Shown: in pieces, positions 32,826-62,171 of the stretch
How positions within the stretch are numbered: the first letter of the stretch is position 1
Layout of the letters: the number at the start of each line of letters is the position of its first letter
IMG/VR virus record: IMGVR_UViG_3300042462_000689
Source of the DNA: a virus
Strand: one strand, 5' to 3'
DNA length: 64,000 nucleotides
Notes under the pieces: generated by a model
The model's database searches: none
Told to the model about the DNA's origin: nothing
What the model saw: the letters and a program-made list of their open reading frames with translations, nothing else
Translations under genes and position numbers: made by a program

Positions 32826-33566
32826 ATGAATCCTCGTCTCTTCGGCGCCTACCTTTCCACTGTAAAATATGCTGCGGCTCCAGCGGCGGCCCCCAAAGCA
32901 CCAGCAAGCCCTACCCCACCTCCTCAGAGTTTCATGAGCATGGGGGTGCCAGGAACAAAAAAGAGCACCATCATCAACTTCCGCAATCTCCCCGGCTATG
33001 TCCCGCTCAACAACGGCGGACTTCCCACCACATCAAACTTTATGCAGGAACATGGGCCGTCTGGTTTTACCACGCGGGCTCTCGGTGCGGGTATCGCCGG
33101 CGCAGTTGTAAATCCTGGCCGGCTGACGCGAAACATCGTCGCTACTGGTCTCGGCAATGCCGTCAATCAGCTCGCGAACCCGCAAAGCGCGTTTCATCAA
33201 GGGCTCAAAAATCTGGGGACGAATCCTGGCGTGTTCTCGGCCGCTGGCGCCGCCGCCCTCCACCCATCCATTTCGGACGAAGCCCTGCAGCATGGCGGAT
33301 ATAAGGCGCCTGCACCAGGTGTCACTTACCAGCGCCCCACTCCGGCTCCTCCACCAGGTGTCATTTACCCGCGCCCCACTCCGGCTCCTCCACCAGGTGT
33401 CATTTACCCGCGCCCCACTCCGGCTCCTCCACCAGGTGTCATTTACCCGCGCCCCACTCCGGCTCCTCCACCAGGTGCCGGATTTGGTCATGGTCCTGGT
33501 CCCAAGGTCAAATCTTCATACATCAACCCCCGCATCTTCGGCGCAATGCTCGCCCAGCTCCGCTAA
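32826..33566 (+). CDS. probable internal virion protein with NPRLFG cassettes at both termini
   Basis: MNPRLFGAYLSTVKYA...INPRIFGAMLAQLR; Pro-rich tandem repeat. Confidence 0.75.
   Translation: MNPRLFGAYLSTVKYAAAPAAAPKAPASPTPPPQSFMSMGVPGTKKSTIINFRNLPGYVPLNNGGLPTTSNFMQEHGPSGFTTRALGAGIAGAVVNPGRLTRNIVATGLGNAVNQLANPQSAFHQGLKNLGTNPGVFSAAGAAALHPSISDEALQHGGYKAPAPGVTYQRPTPAPPPGVIYPRPTPAPPPGVIYPRPTPAPPPGVIYPRPTPAPPPGAGFGHGPGPKVKSSYINPRIFGAMLAQLR
33313..33477 (+). repeat. 39-bp coding tandem repeat (PGVIYPRPTPAPP), about 4 copies
   Basis: unit caccaggtgtcatttacccgcgccccactccggctcctc. Confidence 0.95.
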
Positions 33567-33809
33567 ATGCCAATTCGCATCCGCCATACCGACGGCCAGG
33601 TATTTGAACTGCCGCCCACCGCTCGCTTCGTCGAATTGACGGATTTGCAGGGGGACATCGGCCATTTGATCGTCATCAAGGAAGGCGGGCAGATGCAGAT
33701 GTTCAGCGCGAAGGAGGATGCCACCTATTGCGCCAAATACGCCGCGGCATTCAAAACCAAATTCTGCAAGGTCATCAAGGTTGACCCCAGGCAATTGAGC
33801 CCCACGTAA
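33567..33809 (+). CDS. small hypothetical protein
   Basis: ATG abuts the previous TAA. Confidence 0.7.
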   Translation: MPIRIRHTDGQVFELPPTARFVELTDLQGDIGHLIVIKEGGQMQMFSAKEDATYCAKYAAAFKTKFCKVIKVDPRQLSPT

Positions 33810-33812
33810 TCC

Positions 33813-34631
33813 ATGCCACTCCAAAGCGCACAAATCTCACTCAGCAGCGGGCAGCAGACCGGCACCGTCACCTTCCCGACGCCATTTGCCTTCACGCCTG
33901 TCCCGCCGCTGATCCTTCCAGTGGTGCAGAACTTCTCGGCCGATCCGGTCATCCTGCAATTGTGGGTGACGGTGACGGACTGCGATGCAAATGGATTTGA
34001 TTTCCTCCTGTCCGCCCCGACCAACACCGCCAATTACAAGCTGGTCTACCAGGCCGGCCTGCCGGATGCATTATATGTGGCGACTCAGGGGCGGAGGCTG
34101 ACGGACGAGACGGTATTCAGTGGAACGCTGGCCTCGGGTGATTTGATCCCCATGGTGCAGATGGCCCCCATCCCACAGTCATTTGCCATGCCCATTTCGG
34201 CATTGCAGGCGGCCTTCCCTTCCAATCTGGCCGCAGTCCCTAACACGCCGGCATCGACCACCGGGCAGGTTCATTCATTCCTGACCGACGACAATTACCT
34301 ATATGCCAGGACTCCATCGGGAGTTGGGCGCATTGGCCTTTCGCGCACGCAATGGTCCCTGCCCGACCTGGCATTGAAAATCGATCGCGGATCCCATCTC
34401 TGCACCGCGGCAATCACCCAGACCATCACGTTCGCTGCCACGTTCCCGGTCATTCCGCACGTTCAATTCACAATTCGCAATACCGTCGCCGGAGACAAGC
34501 TGCTGCTCACCGGCAATATCACGGCACGCTCCACTACCGCAGCCACCATCACCCTCAATGCAGTGCCCACAAACGGCACGGACTACTACATTGATTGGAA
34601 GGCGGAATCCGCTCAGGTGGAATCCGCTTAG
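33813..34631 (+). CDS. tail/fibre-associated protein with two H-type-lectin/gp53-like beta domains
   Basis: VTFPTPF...TVT....GF and TITFAATF...V.FT repeats flanking a TPAS..G...DDNYLY module. Confidence 0.6.
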   Translation: MPLQSAQISLSSGQQTGTVTFPTPFAFTPVPPLILPVVQNFSADPVILQLWVTVTDCDANGFDFLLSAPTNTANYKLVYQAGLPDALYVATQGRRLTDETVFSGTLASGDLIPMVQMAPIPQSFAMPISALQAAFPSNLAAVPNTPASTTGQVHSFLTDDNYLYARTPSGVGRIGLSRTQWSLPDLALKIDRGSHLCTAAITQTITFAATFPVIPHVQFTIRNTVAGDKLLLTGNITARSTTAATITLNAVPTNGTDYYIDWKAESAQVESA

Positions 34632-34643
34632 CCGTAATTTCAT

Positions 34644-36683: not shown

Positions 36684-36692
36684 CCCCTGCGG

Positions 36693-36744
36693 TTTGCGCT
36701 TCCTCTGATTTGCGCTTCCTCTGATTTGCGCTTCCTCTGATTTG
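36693..36744. repeat. intergenic 16-bp direct repeat x3 (TTTGCGCTTCCTCTGA)
   Basis: three perfect units plus partial TTTG, no spacers. Confidence 0.95.
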
Positions 36745-36770
36745 TCCGACCTGTCATTCTTTTCTCCCTG

Positions 36771-38000: not shown

Positions 38001-38003
38001 TTT

Positions 38004-41000
38004 ATGCCGACACGCTACTTCAAAAACTCGGTTGACCAAAACTGGGACGTCCCCGGGAACTGGTGGGCAGACGCCGCCTGCACTGAGGGCTTTTCCGGCA
38101 CCCTGACCGGCGTGAATGTCACGGACACGGACACGGAAGTGACCTGCGACAGCACGGCGGGTCTTGTGGTGGGGCGCCCTATCACCGGCACCGGCATAGA
38201 CACAGGCACTACGGTCGCGAGCATCACGGATGGCACGACGTTTGAACTGAGCCTGCCAGCCATCGCCAACGGCAGTAGCAACCTCACTTGTGAATTGCAT
38301 GGGATTCCCGTGACCGCCGATGATGTCGTCATCGCGACTGGCAACGGCACGGTGGTTGCCCTCCCTTCGGCGGACGTGCTCGGGTTGGTGACGGTGAATG
38401 GGGACAGCGTGCTGGATGTAGGTATGTGGCCGTCTGTGGGGCTATCAGCCGCTAGCTTCGAGTTCAATGACACCAGTTACAATTCAGGCTACATCGCCGG
38501 AAACTGCACCTTCAACGACTCTAGTGCCAACTACGAGGGCAATATCGCCGGAAACTGCACCTTCAATGATTCCAGCTTCAGCTACGGCTCCATCACCGGA
38601 GACTGTACCTTCAACGATACTAGTAGCACCACCCTCGATGTCACCGGAAACTGCACCTTCAATGATTCCAGCTTCAACAATTGGGGCTACATCGCCGGAG
38701 ACTGCACCTTCAATGGCTCCAGCTACAACGGTTCTTCTTCCGCCTCCATCACCGGAGACTGTACCTTCAACGACAGCAGCTACAACGACGGCACCATCAC
38801 CGGTGAGGTCGCCTTCAACGGCAACAGTCGTAACGGCAACAATTCTCCTGTGGTAAACGGCATCATCAACGGGGACTTTACGTGGGGTAGTTCCAATTAC
38901 AACTACGGAATCATCAACGGTGACTGCGTAGGCGGCGCGGTCTTAAATGAGTACCCTGGCGTTATCAACGGAAACTGCACGGTAGCCTCCGGCGGGACGG
39001 TTGCCATCAACGGATGCGTCATCAACGGCGACTGTGACTTCCTTAATGGAGGTTACTCCTTTGGCAGCAGTGCGGTTATTACCGGCAACGTCACGTTCTC
39101 TGGTAGTAGCTATGGCGGTATGTATGGCGGAACCATCAACGGAGATGTTACCTTCAACGACTCTACCGCACTGCAAGGCAGTGGCACCATTACCGGAACA
39201 GTCACCTTCAACAACAGCACCCAAAAAACAGGGGGCTACATATATGGTAATCCAACCTTCAACGATTCCAGTGCTTACGCATGGGGCAGCTCAGGCACAA
39301 TCTTTGGTGATCCAACTTTTAATGACTACACGACGTGTAGTGGCGACATTACCGGAAATGTTACCTTAAACGATAATGCCTATTACTCGGGTGACACAAC
39401 GGGCAATGTTTCGTTCACAATGACGACGTTCGTGAGTGACCCTCTGAACAGCGTATACGGCGGATACGTGAGCGGTACGGTAGATTTTCCAAACGGGGCC
39501 ACCTTCACGCTGGCAAACTCAGAATCATGGATTGTGGACGCTTCCGCATGGACAGGCACACTTGCATGGGAGTTTAACGACACCAGCTACAACGCCAGCG
39601 GAGCCACCGTCACAGGAAACCCCACCTTTAACGACACCAGCTACAACGCCAGCGGAGCCACCATCACCGGCAATCCAACCTTCAATGACTCCAGCTACAA
39701 CCAAGGCTACATCTCTGCGACCTCTGTCACCTTCAATGATTACAGCTACAACCGCAGTGACAGCGGTAATCCGCTAGTCGCCACCTCTGTCACCTTCAAC
39801 GATTACAGCTTCAACGGTCTCGACAACGTCGCAGGCGGTTACATCACCGGAGACTGCACATTTAACGACTTCAGCTTCAACGAATACAACGGCTACATCA
39901 CCGGCAACGCCACGTTCACCGCAGCTGAATACTCGGCACTGGGGGGAAATTATTATTACGGCAGCGACCCACAGCGGGGCACCGTCTCAGGTACCGTCAC
40001 CTTTACCAGCCTCACGCCAGTCAAGTTCACGATGGCGGGAAATGTGTGGTATTCGGACACAACCGGATGGGTGTTTGATACCGCTGGTCAGAATTGGGAG
40101 TTCAACGGCGAGAGCTACGTCCTCGGCACCATCACCGGCGATTGTGTGTTCAACGGCGGTGACAGTTATTCAATCCCCTACCAAATCCAAGGAACGGTCA
40201 ATGGCAACTGTGTGTTCAATGTCTACAACGCCATCGGAACCTCTGGTGTCGTCAACGGCGATTGTGTGTTCAACAACGCTAAGGTCGACGGTACCGTCAA
40301 CGGAAACTGCACGTTCAACGGCTACAGTTGGAGCACTAGTACTAGCAACATCACTGGAGACTGCGAATTTTATGGTAACTCCGCTCAGGGCACCATCACT
40401 GGCGACGTCACGTTCTATAGTGGCTACAACACCGGAACCATCACCGGCAACGTCACGTTCTCTGGTGGCTACAACAGCGGCACCATCACCGGCAACGCAT
40501 CGTTCACCGACACTGCATTCTCCACAGCTACCACAGGATTTTTCAACCCACAGCAAGGCACCGTCACAGGCGGCACCGTGGACTTCCCGAATGGAGCTAC
40601 ATTCACTCTGGCAGGCTCTGAGGTATGGACTACGGACGCCTTTGCATGGACAGGCACACTCGCATGGGTGTTCAACGACACCAGTGCCAACAGCTGGGGT
40701 AGCACCATCACTGGCACCGTCACGTTCAACGATTCCAGCTACAACGGTGGCAGCGGCGTCACCATCATCGGCGACCCAACATTCAACGATAACAGCTACA
40801 ACGGCTACAGCACCATCACCGGCAATCCAACCTTCAACGACAACAGCTACAATGCTAGCGGAGGCGGCATCACCGGCAATCCAACATTCAACGATTACAG
40901 CTACACCACCGGCACCATCACAGGCAACTGCACGTTCAACGATACTAGCTACGTCGATGACAACGGAATCATCACCGGCAACGCCACCTTCACCAACACC

Positions 41001-41534
41001 GCCTTCTCCACGGCAACCACTGGATTCTACAACCCACAGCAAGGCACCGTTTCAGGCACCGTGGATTTCCCGAATGGAGCCACCTTCACGCTGGCAAGCG
41101 GAGAAGTATGGGCTACGGACGCCTCCATATGGACTGGCACACTCGCATGGGAGTTCAACGACACCAGCTACAACGCCGAGCGCATCACCGGAGATTGCAC
41201 CTTTAATGGTTACAGCTACGGCACAGTATCCGGTTCCGTCATCGTCGGCAACTGCACCTTCAACGGCTCCAAATACCACGGTAATGGCACCATCACTGGT
41301 AATGTCTCATTCCGTGAATCTTCCTACAGCGGAGCCAGCGGCATCACAGGAAACGTGACATTCTACGATTCCAGCTACAACTCCAGCGGTGTCATCATCA
41401 CCGGCAACGGCATCATCCGCCAGCACGCCGCTGCATTCGTCGCATGGCGGGACTACGCCACGTCCGCCTACATCACCGGCACGCTCACCTTACAATTCCC
41501 CGAGATGGACATCCTCGGCACCGGCCTGCTATAA
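38004..41534 (+). CDS. large beta-solenoid (ITGNCTFNDSSYN-repeat) protein, probable tailspike/adhesin
   Basis: dozens of roughly 20-aa GxxTFN(D/G) repeats; Gly/Thr/Asn/Ser-rich. Confidence 0.8.
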   Translation: MPTRYFKNSVDQNWDVPGNWWADAACTEGFSGTLTGVNVTDTDTEVTCDSTAGLVVGRPITGTGIDTGTTVASITDGTTFELSLPAIANGSSNLTCELHGIPVTADDVVIATGNGTVVALPSADVLGLVTVNGDSVLDVGMWPSVGLSAASFEFNDTSYNSGYIAGNCTFNDSSANYEGNIAGNCTFNDSSFSYGSITGDCTFNDTSSTTLDVTGNCTFNDSSFNNWGYIAGDCTFNGSSYNGSSSASITGDCTFNDSSYNDGTITGEVAFNGNSRNGNNSPVVNGIINGDFTWGSSNYNYGIINGDCVGGAVLNEYPGVINGNCTVASGGTVAINGCVINGDCDFLNGGYSFGSSAVITGNVTFSGSSYGGMYGGTINGDVTFNDSTALQGSGTITGTVTFNNSTQKTGGYIYGNPTFNDSSAYAWGSSGTIFGDPTFNDYTTCSGDITGNVTLNDNAYYSGDTTGNVSFTMTTFVSDPLNSVYGGYVSGTVDFPNGATFTLANSESWIVDASAWTGTLAWEFNDTSYNASGATVTGNPTFNDTSYNASGATITGNPTFNDSSYNQGYISATSVTFNDYSYNRSDSGNPLVATSVTFNDYSFNGLDNVAGGYITGDCTFNDFSFNEYNGYITGNATFTAAEYSALGGNYYYGSDPQRGTVSGTVTFTSLTPVKFTMAGNVWYSDTTGWVFDTAGQNWEFNGESYVLGTITGDCVFNGGDSYSIPYQIQGTVNGNCVFNVYNAIGTSGVVNGDCVFNNAKVDGTVNGNCTFNGYSWSTSTSNITGDCEFYGNSAQGTITGDVTFYSGYNTGTITGNVTFSGGYNSGTITGNASFTDTAFSTATTGFFNPQQGTVTGGTVDFPNGATFTLAGSEVWTTDAFAWTGTLAWVFNDTSANSWGSTITGTVTFNDSSYNGGSGVTIIGDPTFNDNSYNGYSTITGNPTFNDNSYNASGGGITGNPTFNDYSYTTGTITGNCTFNDTSYVDDNGIITGNATFTNTAFSTATTGFYNPQQGTVSGTVDFPNGATFTLASGEVWATDASIWTGTLAWEFNDTSYNAERITGDCTFNGYSYGTVSGSVIVGNCTFNGSKYHGNGTITGNVSFRESSYSGASGITGNVTFYDSSYNSSGVIITGNGIIRQHAAAFVAWRDYATSAYITGTLTLQFPEMDILGTGLL

Positions 41535-41561
41535 TTTCAGCAACCTCAATCCACAAACACC

Positions 41562-41882: not shown

Positions 41883-41888
41883 TCGCCG

Positions 41889-42729: not shown

Positions 42730-42795
42730 AGCCCTGAGCGGCGGCAAGGCAATTCCAGGCTGGACAGTCCTCCGATAATACGGCAGCGTCACCCA

Positions 42796-43574: not shown

Positions 43575-43576
43575 TT

Positions 43577-44721: not shown

Positions 44722-44727
44722 ATCCAA

Positions 44728-45078: not shown

Positions 45079-45089
45079 GCAGGCTGTGT

Positions 45090-45118
45090 TTGCCATTGGC
45101 GCGAATTGCAGATAATCT
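45090..45118 (+). promoter_or_regulatory. sigma70-like promoter
   Basis: TTGCCA-N17-TAATCT, 6 nt before the ATG. Confidence 0.55.
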
Positions 45119-50100: not shown

Positions 50101-50234
50101 ACGTCGCAAAAAACATGGCGGAGTCGGCAATGCGAGGGGAGGACAGCGATTTTAGTTCGAATATTTCACCATACCCGAGACTCGCAATAGGAAAAAACTT
50201 TGCCAATGATGTAGAGAAGACTGGCAAATTTTGA
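47178..50234 (+). CDS. rpoC: DNA-directed RNA polymerase beta' subunit, C-terminal half (bridge helix, trigger loop), intein-containing
   Basis: SGARG, EGLRPAEFLASTYGAR..V.STK.ATA.GG (bridge helix), AANSIGEPITQ.AL.VKH (trigger loop), DPRDIVRLRG, KHTEMVAR; TTG start with AGGAGG upstream. Confidence 0.93.
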   Translation: MKGIRLLLEHQLPHGLRDYGRNYDAKGFNQLLARAAREHPEEYSSIIGKIADVGRNASYDQGESLTLEDLKPVIDKDSIFKGMEARIAQAKKGANTDAEFRTKRMKIWQDTNEHVTRETQREGLRRGNNIAYSVLSGARGKAPQLNSMISAPGIFQDGNGTPIEMYATHSHAEGLRPAEFLASTYGARSAVISTKKATAVGGDFSKQLSSLLSTLNTTRKSTGSDNGVDLDIEDPSLKYRVLAKPAGGFSAGTMITTPVLAELRRKKVPYVIAHSPITDDSPEGIASESVGGMDGGHLYGIGRTAGITAANSIGEPITQSALNVKHCLKEGTMVRMADLSVKPIQEIKAGEWVLGSDITGATFPVKVKYVWDQGIQPVQRYIYKQGQTKRRLTLECTDTHIVLSNKKTTGEYLRKKYAGKYGFGCPENYLACKLPAGYPHKNIAAVLPVECKIDAALETHEPLAVLCGALLGDGIRWDSENHADASIRFSCADPMLIADLQTPLATAGLALKKRKRSHDYAIVHTSTQGWGDRSATTGQMVKTATRHPMKVKMLEWGIANKYAHEKRVPVQALYWDKASVSALLAGFIATDGSIGKNKAGHVFISFASTSRGMLEDLRRLLELRLCVYTSEITNTAKAGTRSYKHDAWAFAITRQDQIQKLVGMLPPIPGCKGPRTKDLLENANYELRNPELFYRAKRESITEIGNHHCWDITVDHPDELFVLENGLIVKNTAGVAGKKREFSGMNAINAFVQSPEAFPDKAPVSELEGTVHSIKDAPQGGKFAYVGDHEHYIPEGLGLLVKPGDKLEAGDALSEGIVDPRDIVRLRGLGEGRRYYATRLKQLLDDSGIKTDLKHTEMVARGALDHVRITDAEGLGDYLPDDTVSYNKLAASYVPPADSERVHPGQGVGRYLQAPALHYTIGTKLTPRMAEHLASRGYDKVAVANDAPGFEPDMDRLRTAGSASTDWASKLTSSYVAKNMAESAMRGEDSDFSSNISPYPRLAIGKNFANDVEKTGKF
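48156..49370 (+). mobile_element. intein (405 aa) with LAGLIDADG endonuclease
   Basis: CLKEGTMVRMAD start, GALLGDG and LAGFIATDG motifs, WDITVDHPDELFVLENGLIVKN end, Thr+1. Confidence 0.93.
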
Positions 50235-51385: not shown

Positions 51386-51392
51386 TCTGCAA

Positions 51393-51695: not shown

Positions 51696-52696
51696 TCCGG
51701 TTGGAGCAGCAGCTCCGGGGGAACAAGGTGCAAATTGCGGATTTGCGCAAAAGCGTGGCGCGGGCACGCACCGAGGCGGATTTGTGGCAGGAGAAATACG
51801 ATGAGGCGCTGGCCATCATGGAACCTCAGAACATCCAGCCACTGCTAGCGTCCTCGTCCCAGCAGGAGGAGCGCCGCGGTGTGTCCCTCGTCGGCCTGAG
51901 CGACTGGCATGTGGCAGAGAAAATCGACAAGGCCAAGGTGCGCGGCCTCAACAGCTACTCGCCGGCCATTTGCCGCAAACGCGCAGTGCATTGCATGGAG
52001 AGCATTATCCGCCTGCAGCGTCATACCGTGAAGAGCTACGACGCCTCCACGATGGTGCTGTGGCTGGGTGGGGATTTCGTCACTGGGTATTTGCATCCTG
52101 AATTGGAGCAGACGAACTTCATGGGCCCGGTGGAGGAATCGTTGTTCGCTGTGGAACTGCTCACGCAATGCATCGGGATGCTGGCCCAGGAGAAGAGCAT
52201 CAAGAAATTGCACATCGTCTGCCAGCGGGGCAATCACGGAAGGACGACGAAAAAGATGCAATTCAAAAACGATTTCGAAACCTCACACGAGACCATGGTG
52301 TATGCCGCACTCGCCGGCTCCATCAAGGCGGATCACATTCAATGGGAGATCCCCAAGGCAGATGTGCATTACGTGGATTTGCTGAAGGACTGGCGGTTGC
52401 GCTGCTTCCACGGGCATCAGGTCAAATACAACGATGGCGTGGGTGGTGTCTCGATCTCGCTCAACAAATGGGAGGCCAAGCAAGACCAGACCCGGAAGGC
52501 CCATCACAACATCATGGGGCACTTCCATCAGTACTCGGAGCCAAACACCCGGACGACGATGAACGGATCGCTCAAAGGATGGGATGAGTACGCCGCGAGC
52601 TTCGGCTTCCCTTACCAGGAGCCGCTGCAGACATTCCTCCTGCTCGACGCATCCAGGCGGATGGTGGCGCAGCGCATGCCGGTCTTCTGCGCGTGA
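51650..52696 (+). CDS. calcineurin-like metallophosphoesterase with N-terminal coiled coil
   Basis: LSDWH, GGDFVTG, GNHGR, HGH, GHFHQ, NGSLKGWDEY. Confidence 0.88.
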   Translation: MSRRIHTPTPHEEEIIRLEQQLRGNKVQIADLRKSVARARTEADLWQEKYDEALAIMEPQNIQPLLASSSQQEERRGVSLVGLSDWHVAEKIDKAKVRGLNSYSPAICRKRAVHCMESIIRLQRHTVKSYDASTMVLWLGGDFVTGYLHPELEQTNFMGPVEESLFAVELLTQCIGMLAQEKSIKKLHIVCQRGNHGRTTKKMQFKNDFETSHETMVYAALAGSIKADHIQWEIPKADVHYVDLLKDWRLRCFHGHQVKYNDGVGGVSISLNKWEAKQDQTRKAHHNIMGHFHQYSEPNTRTTMNGSLKGWDEYAASFGFPYQEPLQTFLLLDASRRMVAQRMPVFCA

Positions 52697-52866
52697 AAAT
52701 CATCCAGGCCATTTTCGGCGAGCCGCGCCTTTTCAATTTCATCATCATGGCGCTGTATTGCATGGCCGCCATCTGGTGGGCCCTTCACCGAAAATGGGCG
52801 GATGCCTGCTACTGGCTCTCCGCACTGGCGATCACTGCGACTGTGACTTTCGGATACAAGCGCTGA
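52693..52866 (+). CDS. small membrane protein (57 aa, not in the ORF track)
   Basis: MKIIQAIFGEPRLFNFIIMALYCMAAIWWA...; GTGA overlap. Confidence 0.6.
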   Translation: MKIIQAIFGEPRLFNFIIMALYCMAAIWWALHRKWADACYWLSALAITATVTFGYKR

Positions 52867-52868
52867 CC

Positions 52869-52967
52869 ATGCACCGCCCCCTTGTCCTGCGTATCGTGCT
52901 CGCCATATGCGCCTGCATCATCCTGCCTTTGCTCGCCCTGCTCAACCGCAACAAGCCGACCCCATGA
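52869..52967 (+). CDS. single-TM micropeptide (32 aa)
   Basis: MHRPLVLRIVLAICACIILPLLALLNRNKPTP; ATGA overlap with the next gene. Confidence 0.45.
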   Translation: MHRPLVLRIVLAICACIILPLLALLNRNKPTP

Positions 52968-53341
52968 AGCCCCGCACACTACACCCCCTCCCTTTCACAG
53001 TGCAGCCGCTGGACGTGTCTGATTTTGCCAAGCCCACCGAACTCTACCCGGAGACCGTCACGGAGGAGGCGCAGCGAATCACATCCGCCGATCGCAATGC
53101 CGCCTACGGACATCCCCTCGACAACCATCAATGCACCGCGGACCTGCTCACCGTATGGCTGCGTCGCAAATACGGGGCTGCGGTGCCGCAATTGACGGCC
53201 GAGGACATCTGCACTTTCAACATGATGCAGAAGCTCAGCCGGGAAGCCCACGCCCCCAAGCGGGACAACTTGGTGGACGTCTGTGGCTACGCCAGGAATG
53301 CCGAGATGATTGCGCAGCGCCGGGCACAGAAGGCGCTCTGA
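52964..53341 (+). CDS. DUF6378-type protein (all-alpha nucleotide pyrophosphatase-like)
   Basis: EEA..I...DR...YG.P..N....A.L; K.SR......DN.VD..GYA. Confidence 0.8.
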   Translation: MKPRTLHPLPFTVQPLDVSDFAKPTELYPETVTEEAQRITSADRNAAYGHPLDNHQCTADLLTVWLRRKYGAAVPQLTAEDICTFNMMQKLSREAHAPKRDNLVDVCGYARNAEMIAQRRAQKAL

Positions 53342-53405
53342 CCGCAGATCGATTGTTTCTTTTGTCAGATTGACGGGGGTGCGTGGCGTAGTGGATCATC
53401 CTCGC

Positions 53406-53654
53406 ATGACTCCCGAGCAGACCACGGCACTGGACAGGGCAATTGAACTCATCGGGGAGTTCTTCGACAACGCCGTCATCGTGGTCCAGCCGGACCCGCA
53501 GAAGCCAGATGCCGAGGTGCGCTACAGTGGATCCTGTCTGGCCGCCGCTTCGCTGTGCGACTACGGGGGCATGTTCTGCAACGGGGAGCTGGAGGCGGGC
53601 GATGAGGAGGAAGAATCTGATGACGGCGATGACTGGAAGAAAAAAAAGGCATGA
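53406..53654 (+). CDS. small acidic protein
   Basis: TTGACG-N18-GATCAT upstream; acidic tail. Confidence 0.6.
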   Translation: MTPEQTTALDRAIELIGEFFDNAVIVVQPDPQKPDAEVRYSGSCLAAASLCDYGGMFCNGELEAGDEEEESDDGDDWKKKKA

Positions 53655-53813
53655 AAGGCGATCAGCATGCGCCGCTTTTTTCCCGTTATTGACGATGAGG
53701 AATATGGGGAGTCCTGGCTGCTTGGGTCTGGTAGCGTGCGGGATGAGCCGGTCCATCGACGCAGGAAGTCCAAGCCAATCCGACAGGTAAAACGCAACCG
53801 TCGTTTTCGGCAA

Positions 53814-53842
53814 TTGCAATTCATTTGAATCTCAGCCATCAT
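53814..53842 (+). promoter_or_regulatory. sigma70-like promoter candidate
   Basis: TTGCAA-N17-CATCAT. Confidence 0.35.
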
Positions 53843-53853
53843 TCCACACACTC

Positions 53854-55584
53854 ATGAATCCTCGTCTTTTTGGTGCCTACCTTTCCACGATCAAATCTGC
53901 GGTCACTAGGACTACAAAACCAACCGCCGCGGAGGATGCCGCTGATACGGCTATGTTGGAGGAGAAGGCCAAAGCTTTCATGTCACAGCCGTCCGGATCC
54001 CCAGGTAAATCAGAGGCCGACAAAGTCATGGACAGCGTGAGTAAACAGAAAATGCCTGAAACACCGATGCCTGTGGGTGCAGCCGGACTGAACTCCATGG
54101 TGGGGCTGTTTGGTCCGGCAGCCCTTGGTGGTCTCGGGGGTGCACTGCCCGGCAATTCCGGAATGGTGCCCGGCACGTTACGCGGCATGACGGCGGGGGT
54201 GGGCGGCAATCTCGGCCACATGCTGGGAGCAGAAGCCTCCGAGGCCCTGGAACACGCGGGCATACAGAGCCCGGCATTGCGCTCCCTGCTGCCGATTCTC
54301 GGCTACGGAGGCGGTGCCTATGCGGGCTACCGCGCCGGCAAGGCGCTCACCAAAACGGACAAGGAAAAGGCGCAGGAGAAGAACGCAAATCTATTCTGGA
54401 AAAAGCTGAAGACCCCCGTTGGAATTAAGTCTCTCTGGGGTCCCTCCGATGGTGCATCCTCCGTGCGATTAGACGCCGAGCGCACAATGGAGCCCAGACT
54501 TCTGACTCGGTTATTCTCGTCTCCGAGAAAGGATTATGATCGTCTGCAGGCATGGATGAAAGATGAACTTGGTAATATGGATCCCGAAGATCGAGAACTT
54601 GGTTCTTCGCCAATGGGGCGTGGAGTTGTGGCCTCCCTTATGCTACCAGCCATGCATCCGGACCGATATAAACAAGAGGGCGACAGTCCTCTTGGTAATG
54701 AGGACATATTTGAAAACTCGATTTATCCAGCAGACAAGACGCGCACCAAAACGGACAAAAAGAAAACTGCCTCCAATTCCCAATTCGAAACCCTGAAGGC
54801 CCCCAAAGTCGACATCAGCGGTTTGAAGAATTGGAATCAACTGGACCCGACGGCCTACTCGGATGATTCCGGCAATAGCGGCTGGCATTTGAATATGCAG
54901 AAGTCGGCGGCGATGGAGAAGGATGCCCTCAGTTTGCTGGCAAAAGCGTTCCCGGCGGCACTGAGCTGGGGCGGCAAGGCCATTGCTAATAAAGTGCGCG
55001 CGATCCCTAAAATGCTTGGCAGCGCGGCGAAGTTCCTCGGAAAAGAAAATCCACAAGTTGCCGGCCTGGGGGCTGCTGCTCCTGCCGCTGCAGGCACATG
55101 GAGAAACCGCTTGTTCGACTGGGGCCGTAAAATTCGCGGCACTGCAACCAACGCCACCAACGCAGCCAATTCTGCATTCCAGACCAATCGCGTGGCACCA
55201 ATGATGCGCGCCTTCAACCAGCTTCCGCAATGGGGGCAGAAGACGCTGGGAGCGCTGGGTAGCGTCGGGCGTTTTGGTGGGAATGTGCTTGCGGGCGGGG
55301 CGGGTACCGGCAAAGGGTTGGGCGGAATGCTAGGTGCAGGTACCTCACTCTGGGGTGCGGGGAAGGCTGGTCATGGCATAGGGATGTATGACGGTGCGCA
55401 GCTCGGCGTGCAGGGTGCCGCCGGCTATGCCTCAAACATGCTCGACGATCTCGCCGGAAAGGCTGATGGTTCCATCATCGACCGCATCGGCATGGCCTAC
55501 AAAATGTCCGACCCGGAGTTCCTGCGCAATACGGCAAAGGAAATGCGCGATCCGAAATTCGTGAGCAAAATGATGGGTCGCTGA
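53854..55584 (+). CDS. probable internal/ejected virion protein with NPRLFG leader and glycine-zipper segments
   Basis: MNPRLFGAYLSTIKSA; several K-x-A motifs; GxxxG-rich hydrophobic blocks. Confidence 0.75.
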   Translation: MNPRLFGAYLSTIKSAVTRTTKPTAAEDAADTAMLEEKAKAFMSQPSGSPGKSEADKVMDSVSKQKMPETPMPVGAAGLNSMVGLFGPAALGGLGGALPGNSGMVPGTLRGMTAGVGGNLGHMLGAEASEALEHAGIQSPALRSLLPILGYGGGAYAGYRAGKALTKTDKEKAQEKNANLFWKKLKTPVGIKSLWGPSDGASSVRLDAERTMEPRLLTRLFSSPRKDYDRLQAWMKDELGNMDPEDRELGSSPMGRGVVASLMLPAMHPDRYKQEGDSPLGNEDIFENSIYPADKTRTKTDKKKTASNSQFETLKAPKVDISGLKNWNQLDPTAYSDDSGNSGWHLNMQKSAAMEKDALSLLAKAFPAALSWGGKAIANKVRAIPKMLGSAAKFLGKENPQVAGLGAAAPAAAGTWRNRLFDWGRKIRGTATNATNAANSAFQTNRVAPMMRAFNQLPQWGQKTLGALGSVGRFGGNVLAGGAGTGKGLGGMLGAGTSLWGAGKAGHGIGMYDGAQLGVQGAAGYASNMLDDLAGKADGSIIDRIGMAYKMSDPEFLRNTAKEMRDPKFVSKMMGR

Positions 55585-55613
55585 TTGCCAACGACACACA
55601 ATTCCAATAGAGT
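55585..55613 (+). promoter_or_regulatory. sigma70-like promoter
   Basis: TTGCCA-N17-TAGAGT upstream of the 55627 ATG. Confidence 0.55.
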
Positions 55614-55626
55614 CAACGAATACCAA

Positions 55627-58600
55627 ATGAAGACACCCACTTTGCAGGACCCGTCCGTTCAATACGACTGGGAGAAGCATGCCAGCGCAGTTCTCTCCAC
55701 TCCAGAGATCGAAAGAGCGTTCGGCGATCAGGCGTACAGCCGCTGCGCCCAGCGCGCCCAAAAGCTGATGCAGCCGCCGTATTTCCTCGGCTTCGAGATG
55801 ATCTACGCCAATGAGGACAAGACGCGCCTTGTGGGCATCTTCGCCTTCCGCATCAACAAGGATCTCATTTACATTCCGAGCTTCTTCCTCAATGGACAGG
55901 TCAAAGGCCAGGAGCTGCTCTACCAGGTGAAGCAGAAGAAGATGAAGCCGTGCACGGAGGAATGGATTTCCTATTTGATGGAGAAGGCCATCTCCGAGCC
56001 CGGCACGGGCATCGCCCGCACCCGACTCGACCGCCTCAATACCGGCACGGATTTGAAACCGCTCATCATGCCGATGCGCAACAAGATTGCCTCCAGCATG
56101 GGCAATTCCGAATTCATCAAGATGGCGCGCGAAGAGCATGGCGAAGATGCCGGACAATTCGTGGAGGATGCATTTACGCGGGCTCTGGCATTTGAGGATA
56201 TGCGGGAGAAGCGAGCTAAGTTTGGCGACCTTACAACGCAGCTGGGCAAGTCGCCCACCGTGCCGGAAGTTACCGCTGATCCCTCGCCTATTCCCGCAGT
56301 TGGCGATTCGACGTTGCCTCCGACTCCCGCCTCGCAAGCAACCAGCAGCGCGAATTTGCCCCAGTCCCCTGCGACACCCGCACCCGGTGCTTCGACGTTG
56401 CCTCCGCCTCCCATCACGCCAGCAGCACCCAGCACCCCGTCCTCCTCTGGCTTCGCACCCCTCGACGCTAAGGTGAATTATATGGCGGAGCCGACTCAGT
56501 TCTACGGGGGTGGCAATGGACGGTTCGGGCACCCCACGCAAGAGCGCGGGAATAACCAGCCCGCCTCTGACTTCGCACCCCTCGACTCTGCAGCCGCGAA
56601 TGCACGGGCCTTCTCTCTTCCGGTGGAACCAGCGGTCAACGCTGAGGTGGAGAATGAAGCCTCAGCAGATCCGGCTCCCGCCCCTCCCCAAGAACCCACG
56701 CCCAGCTACCTACAGCAGTCGCCTGTTTCGGCAAGGCCGCCCCAGCCCGGAGAACATGCACCATCGCTTCCATTCAATCCGAACCAGGTGTCGGACGCAG
56801 ACAAGGCGCGCTTTTACGCAGCCACCAAATCCACATTCAACGCCCGTTCTCCCGGCGACGTGGCCAGCATGCAAAAGATGCTGGCAGGATCCGGTCCGGG
56901 GCATTCCCGGCTGGATAGCATGAACACCTACACCCCGGCACAATACCGGGCTAGCCTCAAGAAGACACCGAATACGGTGTCCAAAGCGCCGATGGCTCAA
57001 AGGCCTATGGTCGGTAGTGGCGGTGGCGGTGGTCCGCGCAGTCCGCGCGCCTATGGTAAAACATCACGCCTACCGGTCACCAAATTGTCCGCCGGCTTCA
57101 TCCCGCGCATGGAAAAGGAAGCCTCCGACTGGTGGACCTCCTACGTGGGCGAGATGCTTCCGGTGGACACCACCAACCCTTTCAAATCCGCCGGTGCCCT
57201 GAGGGAATACCTCGTCACCGACGGCAAGCGTCCTGCGTGTCTCGCCATTCATGGCGCGCTGACCAAATCGGCCGCCTTTGCTGAAGCGCTGATGACCGCC
57301 ACCAATGGCGACATGGAGCAATTCCTCCCCGCGGAGGCCCTGGAGATCACGCAGGTAAAAAAAGCCGCCTACGTCCCGCAGCTCGTCATGCATTTCGGTG
57401 GCGTGAAGAATGCCAGCGTCACCCCTGCGCTTTACGCCCAGACGGTGAAGCATGGCTTCTCCATGACCGATGTGCGCCCCTCCGATGAATTGACGGCTGT
57501 ATATGAAGACGCCCACCACTCCATGGAGTCGGTGACGGGCAATGGCGTTTACGAGATGCCCTCAATGGACGGCAAGAACGGCAAGGTCATTGCGGCCACG
57601 CCTGTGGAATTGTGCGGCGTTGGTAATACGCGGTCTTCGATCTTCAATTGCCACCCTGGCTCGTCGACGCAAAGCCTCGCCTTCATCTTCACCTCCCCGG
57701 TGAATACGATGAAGCGGGTCGAGGTCGGCGCATATGTGGGCAAGGTGATTCCGGAAGAACAGGCCGGCGTCAGCAGCGTGGGCGTGGAGAGCCCGACCGC
57801 CGGCAAGGCCTACGTCATTTACAATCCCAAGTCCGGCAATTGCGCGGACACGGCAGTGTTCATCTCGGGAGTCATCAAGAATCCGTCGGGCACCAAGACG
57901 CTGATTTGCAACAGCGTCGATACCTACAACATCTCCGGCTACGGCGAGATGGAATTGCTCCTGAATCCCGATGCCCCCAAATGCGACTGGCAGCATGGCA
58001 TCCTCAATAGAGAGGTCCGCTTCATCGAAATGGATTTGGAGGAGCTCCCCGAGAACGCCAATCATCGCGCGGCAGCCGGCGGAGGTTCCTCGCTGGGCAC
58101 TGTGGAGATCCCCTGCAAGCGCCTCGTCGCCGCGCCTTCCCTCATGCCGCAAAAAGTGGTGTGGGATTCGCTGCTGTATGGGAAACTCTTCAAGGGGCAA
58201 ATCTCCATGCTCGATGAGAGCGGAAAGATCTCCCTCAATTTCGGCGGCCGGAAATACGCCACCACGCACACCAAGGCTGCAGCCGTTGCCTTCCTCGCCG
58301 GTGGCTGCCATATCGCCGCGGATGCCGCGATGGAGCTGGTCGGTAATGTCGCATCGGGCAAGTCGGTCTCGTTCATCATGCAGCCGCAGGAGAAGCATGC
58401 AATGGCCGTCACGCGCCTGATTGATCGTCCACGCTTCACGGAAGGCTACGATAGCCAGGTGATGGCGCGCGAGCAGGAGCCACAGAGCTTCGAGCTAGGC
58501 ACCCGCACGGACGCGCCACCAATTCGCAGCATCAGTATCAACGAGGTGCACGACCCGTCCATGGGCGGCTCCATGAATTCCGATCGCCACGAAATCAAAG

Positions 58601-58962
58601 ATCATGTCGGCATGGAAGACATGCTGACCAAGGACCCAATGCAATTGGCGGACATCCAGAAGTCTCAGAACCTGCCCAATGTATTTGAGCACAAGCTCAT
58701 CGGCTCGCTCATCAAGACGTTCGACGCCGCGGCCAGCATGGAGCGCTACATTCCCAAGATGGAGGAGGGCCTCGATGCTATCGGGCGTTCGCTGTTCCTG
58801 TTCTTCTGGAAGCCGGCTGACTTTGAAAAGGCATACGGCCAGGACGATACGCCTGATATCGAGCAGGAATTGATTTCCAACTTCAAATCCTTTGGCGACA
58901 TGGTGCTCAATCTGATGCGCAAATCGCCGAACGCGGATCAGGGCTCGGCCCCGATGGCGTAA
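55627..58962 (+). CDS. large probable virion protein with central Pro-rich disordered insert
   Basis: globular N- and C-terminal regions; EKHA/EKEA/KKAA motifs; CCAAATG start. Confidence 0.75.
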   Translation: MKTPTLQDPSVQYDWEKHASAVLSTPEIERAFGDQAYSRCAQRAQKLMQPPYFLGFEMIYANEDKTRLVGIFAFRINKDLIYIPSFFLNGQVKGQELLYQVKQKKMKPCTEEWISYLMEKAISEPGTGIARTRLDRLNTGTDLKPLIMPMRNKIASSMGNSEFIKMAREEHGEDAGQFVEDAFTRALAFEDMREKRAKFGDLTTQLGKSPTVPEVTADPSPIPAVGDSTLPPTPASQATSSANLPQSPATPAPGASTLPPPPITPAAPSTPSSSGFAPLDAKVNYMAEPTQFYGGGNGRFGHPTQERGNNQPASDFAPLDSAAANARAFSLPVEPAVNAEVENEASADPAPAPPQEPTPSYLQQSPVSARPPQPGEHAPSLPFNPNQVSDADKARFYAATKSTFNARSPGDVASMQKMLAGSGPGHSRLDSMNTYTPAQYRASLKKTPNTVSKAPMAQRPMVGSGGGGGPRSPRAYGKTSRLPVTKLSAGFIPRMEKEASDWWTSYVGEMLPVDTTNPFKSAGALREYLVTDGKRPACLAIHGALTKSAAFAEALMTATNGDMEQFLPAEALEITQVKKAAYVPQLVMHFGGVKNASVTPALYAQTVKHGFSMTDVRPSDELTAVYEDAHHSMESVTGNGVYEMPSMDGKNGKVIAATPVELCGVGNTRSSIFNCHPGSSTQSLAFIFTSPVNTMKRVEVGAYVGKVIPEEQAGVSSVGVESPTAGKAYVIYNPKSGNCADTAVFISGVIKNPSGTKTLICNSVDTYNISGYGEMELLLNPDAPKCDWQHGILNREVRFIEMDLEELPENANHRAAAGGGSSLGTVEIPCKRLVAAPSLMPQKVVWDSLLYGKLFKGQISMLDESGKISLNFGGRKYATTHTKAAAVAFLAGGCHIAADAAMELVGNVASGKSVSFIMQPQEKHAMAVTRLIDRPRFTEGYDSQVMAREQEPQSFELGTRTDAPPIRSISINEVHDPSMGGSMNSDRHEIKDHVGMEDMLTKDPMQLADIQKSQNLPNVFEHKLIGSLIKTFDAAASMERYIPKMEEGLDAIGRSLFLFFWKPADFEKAYGQDDTPDIEQELISNFKSFGDMVLNLMRKSPNADQGSAPMA

Positions 58963-59009
58963 CATTTGCGCTGGACGCGCGGTGTGGGGTGTTGAATGCT
59001 GGTTCTCAT

Positions 59010-59138
59010 ATGGAACCCAGACCTGAACGCACAAAGGGAAATGTCGGTGACGCTGTTGTCGTCGCAGTCACTGCCATTTTCTTCGGCTGTTTCCTTCGGC
59101 TGGGGTGGTATATCGTCGAATTGGCTATCGCCCAATGA
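59010..59138 (+). CDS. single-TM micropeptide (42 aa, not in the ORF track)
   Basis: MEPRPERTKGNVGDAVVVAVTAIFFGCFLRLGWYIVELAIAQ; ATGA overlap with 59135. Confidence 0.5.
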   Translation: MEPRPERTKGNVGDAVVVAVTAIFFGCFLRLGWYIVELAIAQ

Positions 59139-59407
59139 AGTCCCCCACACCCACAATCGAAGACGCCCTCACCGAAATGGAAAGCGTAATGGACGAGATG
59201 CATACGCAATGCCTGCGCGATCAGCTCTGGCGTTGGGCGGCATTCCTGTTCGCACAGAAGCATCCGGAATCCCTGCGGGAAATCATTGTCGAGGTGGGTG
59301 GCTGCGTGAGCGAGCAATTGTCCGGCGCTGGCAGAGGCGCCATCAATGCGGCCCATATGCAGGATGCCCTGTCGGAATTCAAATCAGAGGCCTCGAATCT
59401 TTTATGA
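59135..59407 (+). CDS. hypothetical protein
   Basis: coupled at both ends. Confidence 0.65.
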   Translation: MKSPTPTIEDALTEMESVMDEMHTQCLRDQLWRWAAFLFAQKHPESLREIIVEVGGCVSEQLSGAGRGAINAAHMQDALSEFKSEASNLL

Positions 59408-60345
59408 AAGCCGACCGCATCAATCAAATGTGCCGGATATTGCCCGCACCGGAAGAGGACATCGTTCGCGACAACTTCCGCATCCGTGCCGCGGATACGC
59501 AGGTGGGCATTACGGACCCGGAGATTGGTCGGTTCGCCACTGCCTACAAGGATCTGTCTTTCGGCTGGAACTTCGCCAGGACCATGGCGTTCAACCGACG
59601 ACCCATGCAGGTGCCATTGAACGGACGGGATGAATGGGTGTGGCGGGCCTACCTCTACGCCATCAATCCGATCAAATACAAGGACAAGGCATTGGCCGAA
59701 GCCATCACATGGATGGGTGCCGATTACGCCAAGGAGCGGTCCGTCGCAAATGCGCTGCTGGTCTCGGGCGATATGGATTTGGACAAGATCGCCAAAGTGC
59801 TGAACAAAAAGCAGGAGGTAATTTCCGCTTACGAGATCCTCTTCTTCAACATCTGGGATCGGAAGGCGGACGAATTATTCCTCAGTTCGATCATTTACCC
59901 GAACGGTCGCGCGGTGGAATTCTTCAATGGCTACACCACCAACGAGGGGCTCGACGTGCAATTGCTCCGGGCTGGCTTCAACAATGGCGCGGCGCATGTA
60001 TTGCATCTGGCCGGCTTCTCCTCCCAGCTCGTGACCAAATACCTCAGTGCCGATACCGTGCAGCGGTTGGAATCTTTCGTCATGGCCAACGGGCTCATCC
60101 TCGCGATGAACGGCTGGCTCAACCAGGGGCCCGAGGCCGGGCATGGGGTCAATTCAGCCCTGCGGCTTATCTCGGCCGCCAAGGCAGGCGGGCAGGATGA
60201 GAAGGCCTCTCCGTTCCAGAACTCGGGCGGTCAGGTGCTCATGGCGGAAATGCAGCGGGTCAAAGCCGCAGCCCACGCCAAGCGCACCACGGAGTTCTAC
60301 CGCGGGAAGCCGACGATGGAAGTGTCTGGGGCTGGGGTGAACTGA
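59404..60345 (+). CDS. hypothetical protein (AYEILFFNIWDR motif)
   Basis: ATGA overlap; helical protein. Confidence 0.7.
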   Translation: MKADRINQMCRILPAPEEDIVRDNFRIRAADTQVGITDPEIGRFATAYKDLSFGWNFARTMAFNRRPMQVPLNGRDEWVWRAYLYAINPIKYKDKALAEAITWMGADYAKERSVANALLVSGDMDLDKIAKVLNKKQEVISAYEILFFNIWDRKADELFLSSIIYPNGRAVEFFNGYTTNEGLDVQLLRAGFNNGAAHVLHLAGFSSQLVTKYLSADTVQRLESFVMANGLILAMNGWLNQGPEAGHGVNSALRLISAAKAGGQDEKASPFQNSGGQVLMAEMQRVKAAAHAKRTTEFYRGKPTMEVSGAGVN

Positions 60346-60389
60346 TTTGGAATCGACTTGCTCTCTCTCTCGTTTAGACTGACGGGAGT

Positions 60390-60902
60390 ATGAATCCTCG
60401 TCTTTTTGGTGCGTATCTCTCCACAGTCAAATCAGCTGATATGTCTTCGAGACTCGAAGCCGCCGGGTCCAATATCGCGCGACATGCGGGAGGAAATGCC
60501 TTGGGCGGCGCTGCTGTGGGTCTGGGTGTGGGCCTCAACCGTATTGCGCGCAAGGGTTACGCAAATATGGATACAAAAGAAATCCTGTTGCATCTTCTGG
60601 CGCTGCCGGTCGCCGGGGCAGGGATTGGTTCCGTGACAGGTGCGGGACTGTCGGGTTTGCATGGTTTGATCCTCCCAAAGCAGGTGATGCAGGATTTACG
60701 CGAAGAGCAGGAAAGTAAAAAGAAGGCGTCCATCAGCCCGCGTCTTTTCGGCGCCTACCTTTCCACTGTCAAATCGGCTCATCAAGGTATTTCCTCCGGG
60801 CATGCAATTAAACAGGATGAGGAAAAGGCGCGGCGCGCGAAGCTCAAGAAAGTGGCATCCATCAACCCCCGCATCTTCGGCGCATTGATCGCGCAGCTCT
60901 GA
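60390..60902 (+). CDS. probable internal virion polyprotein with three NPRLFG cassettes and a glycine-zipper cargo
   Basis: cassettes at 60390, 60732 and 60861. Confidence 0.75.
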   Translation: MNPRLFGAYLSTVKSADMSSRLEAAGSNIARHAGGNALGGAAVGLGVGLNRIARKGYANMDTKEILLHLLALPVAGAGIGSVTGAGLSGLHGLILPKQVMQDLREEQESKKKASISPRLFGAYLSTVKSAHQGISSGHAIKQDEEKARRAKLKKVASINPRIFGALIAQL

Positions 60903-60917
60903 TTTGAAATACCAGCA

Positions 60918-62171
60918 ATGATGACGCCCGGCATATTGGGAGCACGGATGAGCATGGTGAAGCTGGCTGCTCCGGCTCTGCCTTCTGTCTCTTCACCACC
61001 AGCAGGACGGTCCGCATTCAAATGGCCAAAATCAATCGGTGACGTATGGGACCGCGTGACAGGTAAGACTCCACCACCCTCATTCCTTACGGGACCAAGT
61101 CAATTACCACAGCCTCCCACACCCACCCCACCACCGCCAACAAGTCAGGTGGTAGGCGGTGGTTTTAGGGCAGGCGTCGCGCCGCAAGCAACAGGCGCCC
61201 CCGCTGTGAAGCCAATTCCCTCCGCATTTGCCGGGCCTACGCTGTCCTCCGTGACCCCAGCATATTACAAGCAACCGTATTACGGAAATAACCTGCAAAG
61301 CGAAATGGAAAAGGCGCATGCCTACAATACAGCATCCGGTTTGCCAGGAGATCAAAATAAATGGACGCAGCCGGTGCCGGTGTTGCGCAATGATGCGGAT
61401 GCCGCAGTTTTCGGGCCACATTACGACCCGCTCGCTGACAGCGTCCACATGTGGGGTTCGGACGAGAGACGGAAGTTTACAGACAGCGTCCTCAAGGATC
61501 CAGAGGGTCTACGAGATTCGAACATGACAGCCAGGCAGGCGGCTAAATCGTTAATGGATGATGAGGATTCGCTGAAGCATGAGGCGTATCACGGAGCGCT
61601 TGCAAGTCCGCCGGGTACCGGGGTGGATGCTTACGACACTGCAGCTTTACGCCTGGAGCATCCAGACAAATATGTCCCCACGTATGCGACCCCATATCCT
61701 GATCAGCCGCGCATGGGAAGTGGGCTGCATTGGTCGAGGCGTCCTTCTGGAGAACGTCCGGTGCATTTCCGCGAGACGCTGAAGCAACAGAACAAATTGC
61801 CTGTGTATGGCAACCTGCATCATGATGTGCACTCTGCCGAGATGCGGGATTACATGTCGCAATTGCAGGAGCATCAATACCAGAACACCGGGAAGCGATT
61901 TGAAAGCCCGCAGGATTACGACAAGTTTTTACAGGGAGTAAATCCCACGCAACCCGATGAGTCGCAATTCGAGAAGGGGATTCAGCAATACCCACTGGAT
62001 GCCCAGCGCATGTTCCGGCAGATGCGCAAAACAAATCAGCGCAGCCCGGAAATCTACGACAACATCCGTAACTGGCAGCGCACTGTGGTTCCGGGCATTG
62101 TGCAGAACGGACAGGAGATCAACAAGACTGCCTCATTGCGGGAACTGGCCCGTCGGTTGGCAAAGCGCTGA
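60918..62171 (+). CDS. probable internal virion protein with HExxH (zincin-like) motif
   Basis: degenerate leader MTPGILGARMSMVKLA; LKHEAYHG; C-terminal NKTASL. Confidence 0.65.
   Translation: MMTPGILGARMSMVKLAAPALPSVSSPPAGRSAFKWPKSIGDVWDRVTGKTPPPSFLTGPSQLPQPPTPTPPPPTSQVVGGGFRAGVAPQATGAPAVKPIPSAFAGPTLSSVTPAYYKQPYYGNNLQSEMEKAHAYNTASGLPGDQNKWTQPVPVLRNDADAAVFGPHYDPLADSVHMWGSDERRKFTDSVLKDPEGLRDSNMTARQAAKSLMDDEDSLKHEAYHGALASPPGTGVDAYDTAALRLEHPDKYVPTYATPYPDQPRMGSGLHWSRRPSGERPVHFRETLKQQNKLPVYGNLHHDVHSAEMRDYMSQLQEHQYQNTGKRFESPQDYDKFLQGVNPTQPDESQFEKGIQQYPLDAQRMFRQMRKTNQRSPEIYDNIRNWQRTVVPGIVQNGQEINKTASLRELARRLAKR

Follow-up and report, generated by a model that had tools for sequence, protein, structure and literature searches.

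The heads of phages carry injected proteins, among them anti-defence factors, channel formers and enzymes, and to our knowledge the rules by which such cargo is loaded are known for T4, P1 and a small number of giant phages only. Encapsulins use short conserved cargo-loading peptides, at the N- or the C-terminus, to dock cargo inside a shell of the HK97 fold. For T4, the capsid-targeting sequence (CTS) was reportedly the subject of work by Mullaney and Black in 1996. The T4 CTS, an N-terminal propeptide of 10–20 amino acids (aa), attaches to the prohead core and is cut off by the protease gp21, and it is the sole conserved part of otherwise diverse internal proteins (PMC7411985; PMC3012670). 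In P1, the N-terminal 30 residues of DarB direct packaging (PMC9024508), and a C-terminal propeptide has been proposed to target the prohead protease of SPN3US, gp245, into the prohead; the cutting rules of these phage proteases are based on Glu, namely, L/I-x-E in T4 and A-x-E in SPN3US (PMC7411985). Zincin-like peptidase domains have in turn been proposed to process the polyvalent proteins of phages and conjugative elements (Iyer et al., 2017; PMC5512222). Here we present a sequence-based analysis of a 64-kb stretch from an uncultured lake phage (64,000 nucleotides, IMG/VR virus record IMGVR_UViG_3300042462_000689; the window, hereafter), in which a peptide of 12–16 residues, which we call the tag, recurs on proteins whose bodies are unrelated.

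The tag is present in seven copies on four plus-strand proteins with unrelated bodies, P0001 to P0004 (Table 1). We give about an even chance to the explanation that it serves to dock head-internal or ejected proteins and is then removed, similar in function to the T4 CTS but unrelated to it in sequence, which would be usable at either end of a protein and would serve also as a recombination joint. Slightly short of even, in our estimate, is a second formulation, namely, that of a two-ended address tag: a peptide with the same reading at the N-terminus, the C-terminus or a joint, with K-x-A between tag and cargo, which would act both as a loading signal for head-internal or injected proteins and as a homology patch for module swaps.

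The seven copies were located as follows. N-terminal tags open the proteins at 32826, 53854 and 60390, where each ATG before N-P-R is the first possible start in its open reading frame (ORF); an internal copy lies at 60732, C-terminal variants lie at 33522 and 60861, and a diverged N-terminal copy is found at 60918/60921. A hidden Markov model (HMM) of the tag, built from 15 distinct copies and run against all six-frame ORFs of the window with all filters off, recovered exactly these copies at 18–28 bits, the next best candidate scoring 6.4 bits; all of the tag positions and sequences given by the initial annotation were confirmed. The diverged copy of P0004 is homologous and not a coincidence, since P0018, a homologue 53% identical to P0004, opens with a clear tag (..VNPRLLGAFIASVKSA). 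Once the tags were removed, the cargo parts of the four proteins gave no significant pairwise similarity in BLASTP.

At the DNA level, the word ATGAATCCTCGTCT has three exact occurrences and four matches when two mismatches are allowed, a number reached by none of 100 shuffles, and the longest run of identical bases between tag copies is 14. Pairwise codon differences among six N-type copies are 81 synonymous versus 23 non-synonymous, with variation at the third position of many codons (CTC/CTT, TTC/TTT, GGC/GGT, GCC/GCG, TAC/TAT, ACT/ACG/ACA and others), and selection has therefore acted on the peptide rather than on the DNA. Homology between the tagged genes starts at the ATG. The DNA upstream is unrelated, which rules out a shared promoter cassette and, together with the synonymous divergence, argues against a DNA element and against a very recent duplication. 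The cassette duplication that had been read from the shared DNA is thus correct only in part, since similarity begins only at the ATG, and the copies are old and synonymously diverged.

These results bear directly on the idea that the tag has no function as a peptide, being instead a conserved DNA joint, or an ancestral gene-end remnant, kept for cassette recombination. The breakpoints between relatives that fall in or at the tag, and the chimeric internal tags described below, are what this idea would lead one to expect, but synonymous sites that vary freely while amino acids are kept are the opposite of what a DNA site predicts, no two copies have more than 14 consecutive bases in common, and the tagged proteins have in common also a basic, Cys-free composition. 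The DNA-site reading was rejected on the synonymous variation, and the idea as a whole strikes us as very improbable.

The anatomy of the tag was derived from an alignment of 23 copies in 12 proteins, from the window, two metagenome loci and eight database proteins. All copies have in common the core N-P-R-[L/I]-[F/L]-G-A. In the N-type tag (NPRLFGAYLSTVK-x-A), the core is followed by Y-L-S-T-[V/I/L]-K-x-[A/G/S]; in the C-type tag (NPRIFGA..AQL), it is followed by [L/M]-[I/L/V]-A-Q-L(-R) and the end of the protein. Every well-preserved N-type copy terminates in K-x-[A/G/S], and every internal or C-terminal copy has K-x-[A/S] two to three residues upstream (KKA-S, KVA-S, KKA-A, KDA-S, KKS-T, VKS-SY, IKS-GS). 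The K-x-A flanks to which the initial annotation drew attention thus adjoin the tag on its cargo side in the copies examined, and, since they lie downstream of N-terminal tags and upstream of internal and C-terminal ones, the putative cut site always faces the cargo. Such mirrored placement would be predicted for a removable tag and not for a structural helix. A Sec-type signal peptide, with a hydrophobic core of at least 10 residues and small residues at −3/−1, was considered separately and rejected: the run in the tag is about nine residues and includes Gly, Ser and Thr, there is a Lys at −3, and copies occur internally and at C-termini.

Hydrophobic residues are kept at positions 4, 5, 8, 9 and 12 of both tag types, a spacing that fits one face of a three-turn helix. 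This i, i+1, i+4, i+5, i+8 pattern could equally be that of a permanent, unremoved amphipathic helix, which would act as a host-membrane anchor of the MinD/FtsA type or in module pairing or oligomerisation. Several features agree with such a helix, namely, the hydrophobic segment within the TM1 module of P0003 (residues 62–88; Kyte-Doolittle value 1.81), the Gly-rich hydrophobic stretches of P0002, the basic residues that precede C-terminal tags, the small carriers that have an N tag at one end and a C tag at the other, two elements that could pair, and a low-confidence AlphaFold2 model that draws the tags as helices (predicted local distance difference test, pLDDT, of 32). Membrane-binding helices, however, are usually conserved in character and not residue by residue, whereas here unrelated cargos carry N-P-R and F-G-A almost unchanged. 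Moreover, P0001 and P0004 have no hydrophobic segment, the helical hydrophobic moment of the tag is unremarkable (0.44–0.49, versus a 95th percentile of 0.53), and a permanent helix leaves unexplained both the K-x-A/S on the cargo side and the excess of this motif in untagged neighbours. We consider it unlikely.

This excess was measured by comparing each plus-strand ORF with 300 shuffles of itself. In the six proteins encoded at 53854–63727, 18 occurrences of K-x-A-[S/A] were observed in sum, versus about 4.5 expected (approximately 4-fold), whereas all other ORFs of at least 100 aa in the window gave 12 versus about 12.5. The strongest excess in the window is that of P0014, which is untagged (7 observed, 1.2 expected, z 5.5), followed by P0013 (4 versus 0.9, z 3.5), P0004 (2 versus 0.3, z 3.1) and P0003 (2 versus 0.5, z 2.4); for K-x-A as such, P0013 has 13 occurrences where 5.1 are expected (z 3.9). 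Within the window, the enrichment is restricted to this presumed head block, and P0002, P0003 and P0004 are located in this block of K-x-A-rich proteins. The context of the sites is often [V/I/T]-K-x-A|[S/A], and homologues as distant as 53% identity keep both K-x-A sites of P0004 unchanged. The excess fits a head-maturation protease that would cut after K-x-A. Some sites of this kind also delimit other terminal peptides, for example, the first 21 residues of P0013 (62222–62284, ..IQKSA|S) and, at the end of P0004, the final 12 residues (62133–62168), a basic, helix-like tail after NKTA|S that is invariant in all homologues, and these may be further propeptides. The tag sequence beyond K-x-A is missing at the other K-x-A sites of the block, and the tag is therefore more than a cut site.

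The cargo has properties of its own. Cys is absent from the 1,409 residues of the four tagged proteins, versus 1.5% in other proteins of the window, which would amount to about 21 residues; P0013 is likewise Cys-free. The net charge of all four is basic. Such traits would suit proteins that are kept alongside DNA and have to travel through a narrow channel. As for its identity, the globular part of P0004 contains K-H-E-x-Y-H (61578–61592), invariant in homologues, and an extra module of relatives carries HELGH, with a YDPLxDS stretch 5' of the HExxH that is shared with P0004 (E 0.05). P0004 and the HELGH module are thus possible metallopeptidases, as judged from these motifs.

If so, the tag could instead be the recognition element of a zinc metallopeptidase encoded by the cassette itself (the HExxH of P0004 and of the 441- and 566-aa relatives), which, either before injection or after it, would split small polyvalent proteins into their modules, while loading into the capsid would rely on something else. 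Zincin-like processing has been proposed for polyvalent proteins (PMC5512222), relatives have the HELGH module and tagged modules in one fusion protein, and, among neighbours in a protein atlas, which are unnamed viral clusters, the nearest named ones include peptidase M85, M48 and LPD23, but with weak scores of only 0.76–0.78. HExxH by itself is a weak signature, and the cargo has no match to peptidase families in Pfam, NCBIfam, PHROGs or PDB; the AlphaFold models of P0004 (pLDDT 37) and P0019 (pLDDT 32) are unusable. Furthermore, the K-x-A excess reaches large untagged proteins, pointing to a general maturation protease, and the absence of the rest of the tag at other sites again makes it more than a cut site. 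This alternative seems to us rather improbable, somewhat more so than the permanent helix.

Relatives of the locus revealed how the modules are exchanged. A pattern scan of Joint Genome Institute (JGI) metagenomes gave 10 loci, among which only L004 and L010, both from one JGI sample, are true relatives; in L003, L005–L009 and L011 a nine-residue match lies in frames that are unrelated or interrupted by stops, and a re-scan of L012 showed no match. First, L004 is 97.5% identical to positions 57990–60409 of the window and 97% identical to positions 60762–60971, with 1.5 kb of different DNA between the conserved stretches versus 350 bases in the window. Its left break falls about 20 nucleotides (nt) into the N tag of P0003, and identity resumes exactly at the S-A|H-Q-G codons, the end of the internal tag. 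The resulting protein of 566 aa consists of a variant tag, the HELGH module, KKA-A plus tag and a different Gly-rich module, after which it shares the end of P0003, namely, the same 26-residue basic module and KVA-S plus C tag. Second, L010 matches the window at 98% identity as far as I-K-S in the tag of P0002, directly after which 500 nt encode an extra Gly-rich module that ends in a decayed tag, and it rejoins the window at 53987. Third, among database proteins, P0006 reads tag–TM1–C tag and P0019 reads variant tag–HELGH–tag–TM1–C tag, so that the P0003 locus is found in the variants P0006, P0019, P0010/L004 and P0007, while P0008, P0009 and P0011 carry the modules of P0001 in other orders.

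The internal tags of P0011 and P0019 are chimeric, with a C-type start (NPRIF) and an N-type end (GAY..K-x-A), as is expected if the C tag of a unit recombines with the N tag of the unit that follows it. In P0001, comparison with P0009 and P0011 suggests that the relic tag occupies the position where these relatives carry KKST/KSSY followed by INPRIFGAYLSTVKNGG. The modular character that had been ascribed to the tag is accordingly well founded, in that the tag is portable to the N-terminus, the C-terminus and joints on unrelated cargo, with breakpoints of module swaps within it; its removal and its part in head packaging we keep as predictions. The window sequence itself was found unchanged in many lake-water metagenome runs: contigs of four such runs mapped on 52800–62300 showed an identical arrangement with zero variants, and loose contig ends at 53845/53888 and 60856/60899 reflect cross-mapping of the P0001 tags only.

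Taking these observations together, we propose how a removable docking tag would work. The NPR-[L/I]-F-G-A peptide, probably helical, would direct unrelated, basic, Cys-free proteins to one and the same place, most likely the inside of the head during assembly, where the scaffold or core, the portal or the inner shell surface are candidate docking partners. It would then be clipped by the phage maturation protease at the adjoining K-x-A/S, downstream of the tag in the N-type and upstream in the C-type. Because all tagged genes share the core, recombination inside it would fuse, split and swap cargo modules, leaving internal, sometimes chimeric, tags that may persist as cleavable joints or decay.

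Several points weigh against this explanation. The tagged proteins and their neighbours have no virion family match in PHROGs, Pfam, NCBIfam or PDB sequences; no database match, then, establishes the carriers as the virion proteins that the initial annotation took them for, and their location in the head leans on the K-x-A excess. P0001 lies 20 kb from the other tagged genes, where its neighbours are tail-fibre-like genes and a gene for an HD phosphohydrolase. In the HELGH module, the N' tag (MNPRLLG[AT]YFSNFSG) has no K-x-A end, some internal tags are decayed, as in L010 and P0001, so that internal cleavage is not always needed, and the hydrophobic moment of the tag is only moderate. Besides the unusable models of P0004 and P0019, there is the size of the evidence base, about a dozen proteins from one lake-phage lineage.

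In the collections searched, the tag is confined to this tiny lineage. INPHARED contained no relative by DNA or protein. In IMG/VR, four protein or alignment scans gave no relative, and the DNA pattern gave two chance matches (L001 and L002). Word-indexed searches of 5.8 billion proteins yielded eight tag-bearing relatives, seven through P0003 queries and P0018 through a P0004 query, and an exhaustive phmmer search of 1.84 billion representatives with the tag-bearing C-terminal 63 residues of P0003 yielded only four proteins at E ≤0.001. No look-alike of the stretch 52354–63671 was found among the other genome windows compared. In GTDB genomes, the C-type pattern had 0 matches and the N-type pattern four, namely, L013, which has no tag in any frame, and L014–L016, counted as one chance match. 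The latter three hold a common conserved element (L014, 1397–1425; L015, 5903–5931; L016, 7415–7443) that translates as WNPRLFGAYLSPELPA and comes from two Hyphomicrobium metagenome-assembled genomes (MAGs) and one unclassified proteobacterial MAG; in L015, it sits between tsaD-like and hemC-like genes, outside both, in an 87-aa ORF without other support.

Table 1. Tagged proteins, tag copies and neighbouring proteins of the lake-phage window.
Feature	Position	Strand	Description
P0001	32826..33566	+	246 aa, Pro/Ala/Gly-rich, 19 K+R vs 3 D+E, no Cys; N-type tag, module A, relic tag, module B, four PGVIYPRPTPAPP repeats, C-type tag
P0001 N-type tag	32826..32873	+	MNPRLFGAYLSTVKYA; HMM 27.6 bits
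P0001 decayed internal tag relic	32970..33020	+	Residues 49-65; KKST then IINFRNLPGYVPLNNGG
P0001 C-type tag	33522..33563	+	INPRIFGAMLAQLR, after VKS-SY; HMM 24.5 bits
P0002	53854..55584	+	576 aa, Gly/Ala-rich, moderately hydrophobic Gly-zipper-like stretches, no Cys; N-type tag only
P0002 N-type tag	53854..53901	+	MNPRLFGAYLSTIKSA; HMM 24.7 bits
P0014	55585..58962	+	1125 aa, untagged, no family match
P0003	60390..60902	+	170 aa; variable cassette locus flanked by conserved genes; N-type tag, module TM1, KKA-S, internal tag, 26-aa basic module, KVA-S, C-type tag
P0003 N-type tag	60390..60437	+	HMM 28.4 bits
P0003 KKA-S and internal N-type tag	60720..60779	+	ISPRLFGAYLSTVKSA; HMM 25.2 bits
P0003 KVA-S and C-type tag	60849..60899	+	INPRIFGALIAQL; HMM 21.0 bits
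P0004	60918..62171	+	417 aa, no Cys; diverged N-type tag, HMM 18.0 bits; tag ending VKLA|A, Pro-rich linker, globular part, NKTA|S, 12-aa basic tail
P0013	62222..63727	+	501 aa, Ala-rich, no Cys; own N-terminal peptide ending IQKSA|S

Regarding the individual genes, P0001 is proline-rich and probably disordered; its four tandem PGVIYPRPTPAPP copies span 33300–33470 (residues ~160–215), where P0008 and P0011 have related Pro-rich 'GQF(M/S)GNP.PTP' repeats instead. P0001 and P0002 have no Shine-Dalgarno sequence; a CA-repeat lies just 5' of the ATG (CCACACACACACACACAA ATG, 32796–32825, and CCACACACTC ATG, 53824–53853), which may be a CA-rich translation enhancer or reflect a different initiation mode, while P0003 has GGGAG upstream. 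The stop of P0002 abuts the TTG start of P0014, a portal candidate by its position only, and P0013 is a scaffold- or core-like candidate. In P0012 (58996–60345), the first ~136 codons of the longest ORF look non-coding (Arg/Cys/Trp-rich), as they do in L004, and translation more plausibly begins near 59404 (MKADRINQ...).

The window at large has a G+C content of 56.6%, with all substantial ORFs on the plus strand. Its PHROG matches (DNA methyltransferase, homing endonucleases, exonuclease, endolysin and tail-fibre-like proteins) identify the source as a phage. Two large proteins, at 22026–25412 and 47178–50234, match separate parts of phrog_25354 (profile positions 171–495 and 626–941); the former has a weak HNH match and the latter a weak match to the beta subunit of RNA polymerase. 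Amid the tail-fibre-like genes, 38004–41534 encodes a protein of 1176 aa with a bactofilin-type beta-helix domain (PF04519, E 1.6e-18, residues 710–788), 23 Cys and zero K-x-A, which is probably a fibre or spike.

If the tag does mark cargo, injected proteins of this lineage would be recognisable from sequence alone, the tag would amount to a minimal, portable label for packaging, and it would show how cargo repertoires evolve when modules are exchanged at a joint that stays fixed. Practical use is limited, given a small uncultured lineage and a general idea, that of the T4 CTS, which is long established.

With respect to known systems, encapsulin cargo-loading peptides differ from the tag in their consensus, in being uncleaved and in not being known from phages. 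The polyvalent proteins resemble the tagged proteins in having unrelated modules per polypeptide that are recombined between relatives (here P0003/P0006/P0019/P0010/P0007 and P0001/P0008/P0009/P0011), in the possible HExxH peptidase module, and in genes near presumed virion genes. In contrast, the lake-phage proteins are small (127–576 aa, one to three modules) and without a recognised effector or MPTase domain, and their joints bear a defined tag of 12–16 aa that is not described by Iyer et al. (2017; PMC5512222). P1 DarB and SPN3US gp245 likewise have terminal peptides that direct proteins into the head, including from the C-terminus, but these are longer (30–64 residues), single-protein signals, and not a cassette shared by many cargos.

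The closest likeness is to the CTS of the T4 proteins IPI, IPII, IPIII and Alt, which is also a short terminal peptide common to diverse small basic proteins, the only conserved part of them, and has a protease site directly beside it, where the lake-phage tag has its putative cut site. Membership of the tag in the T4 CTS family is ruled out by sequence and by cut rule, and it has no PHROGs match: the two sequences have no similarity, and the tag has no Glu, its inferred rule being K-x-A versus L/I-x-E. What distinguishes the lake-phage tag is, first, its use also at C-termini and internal joints, with mirrored putative cut sites that would follow a non-Glu rule, and, second, a core that doubles as recombination breakpoint, both the putative cut site and the breakpoints being known here from sequence alone.

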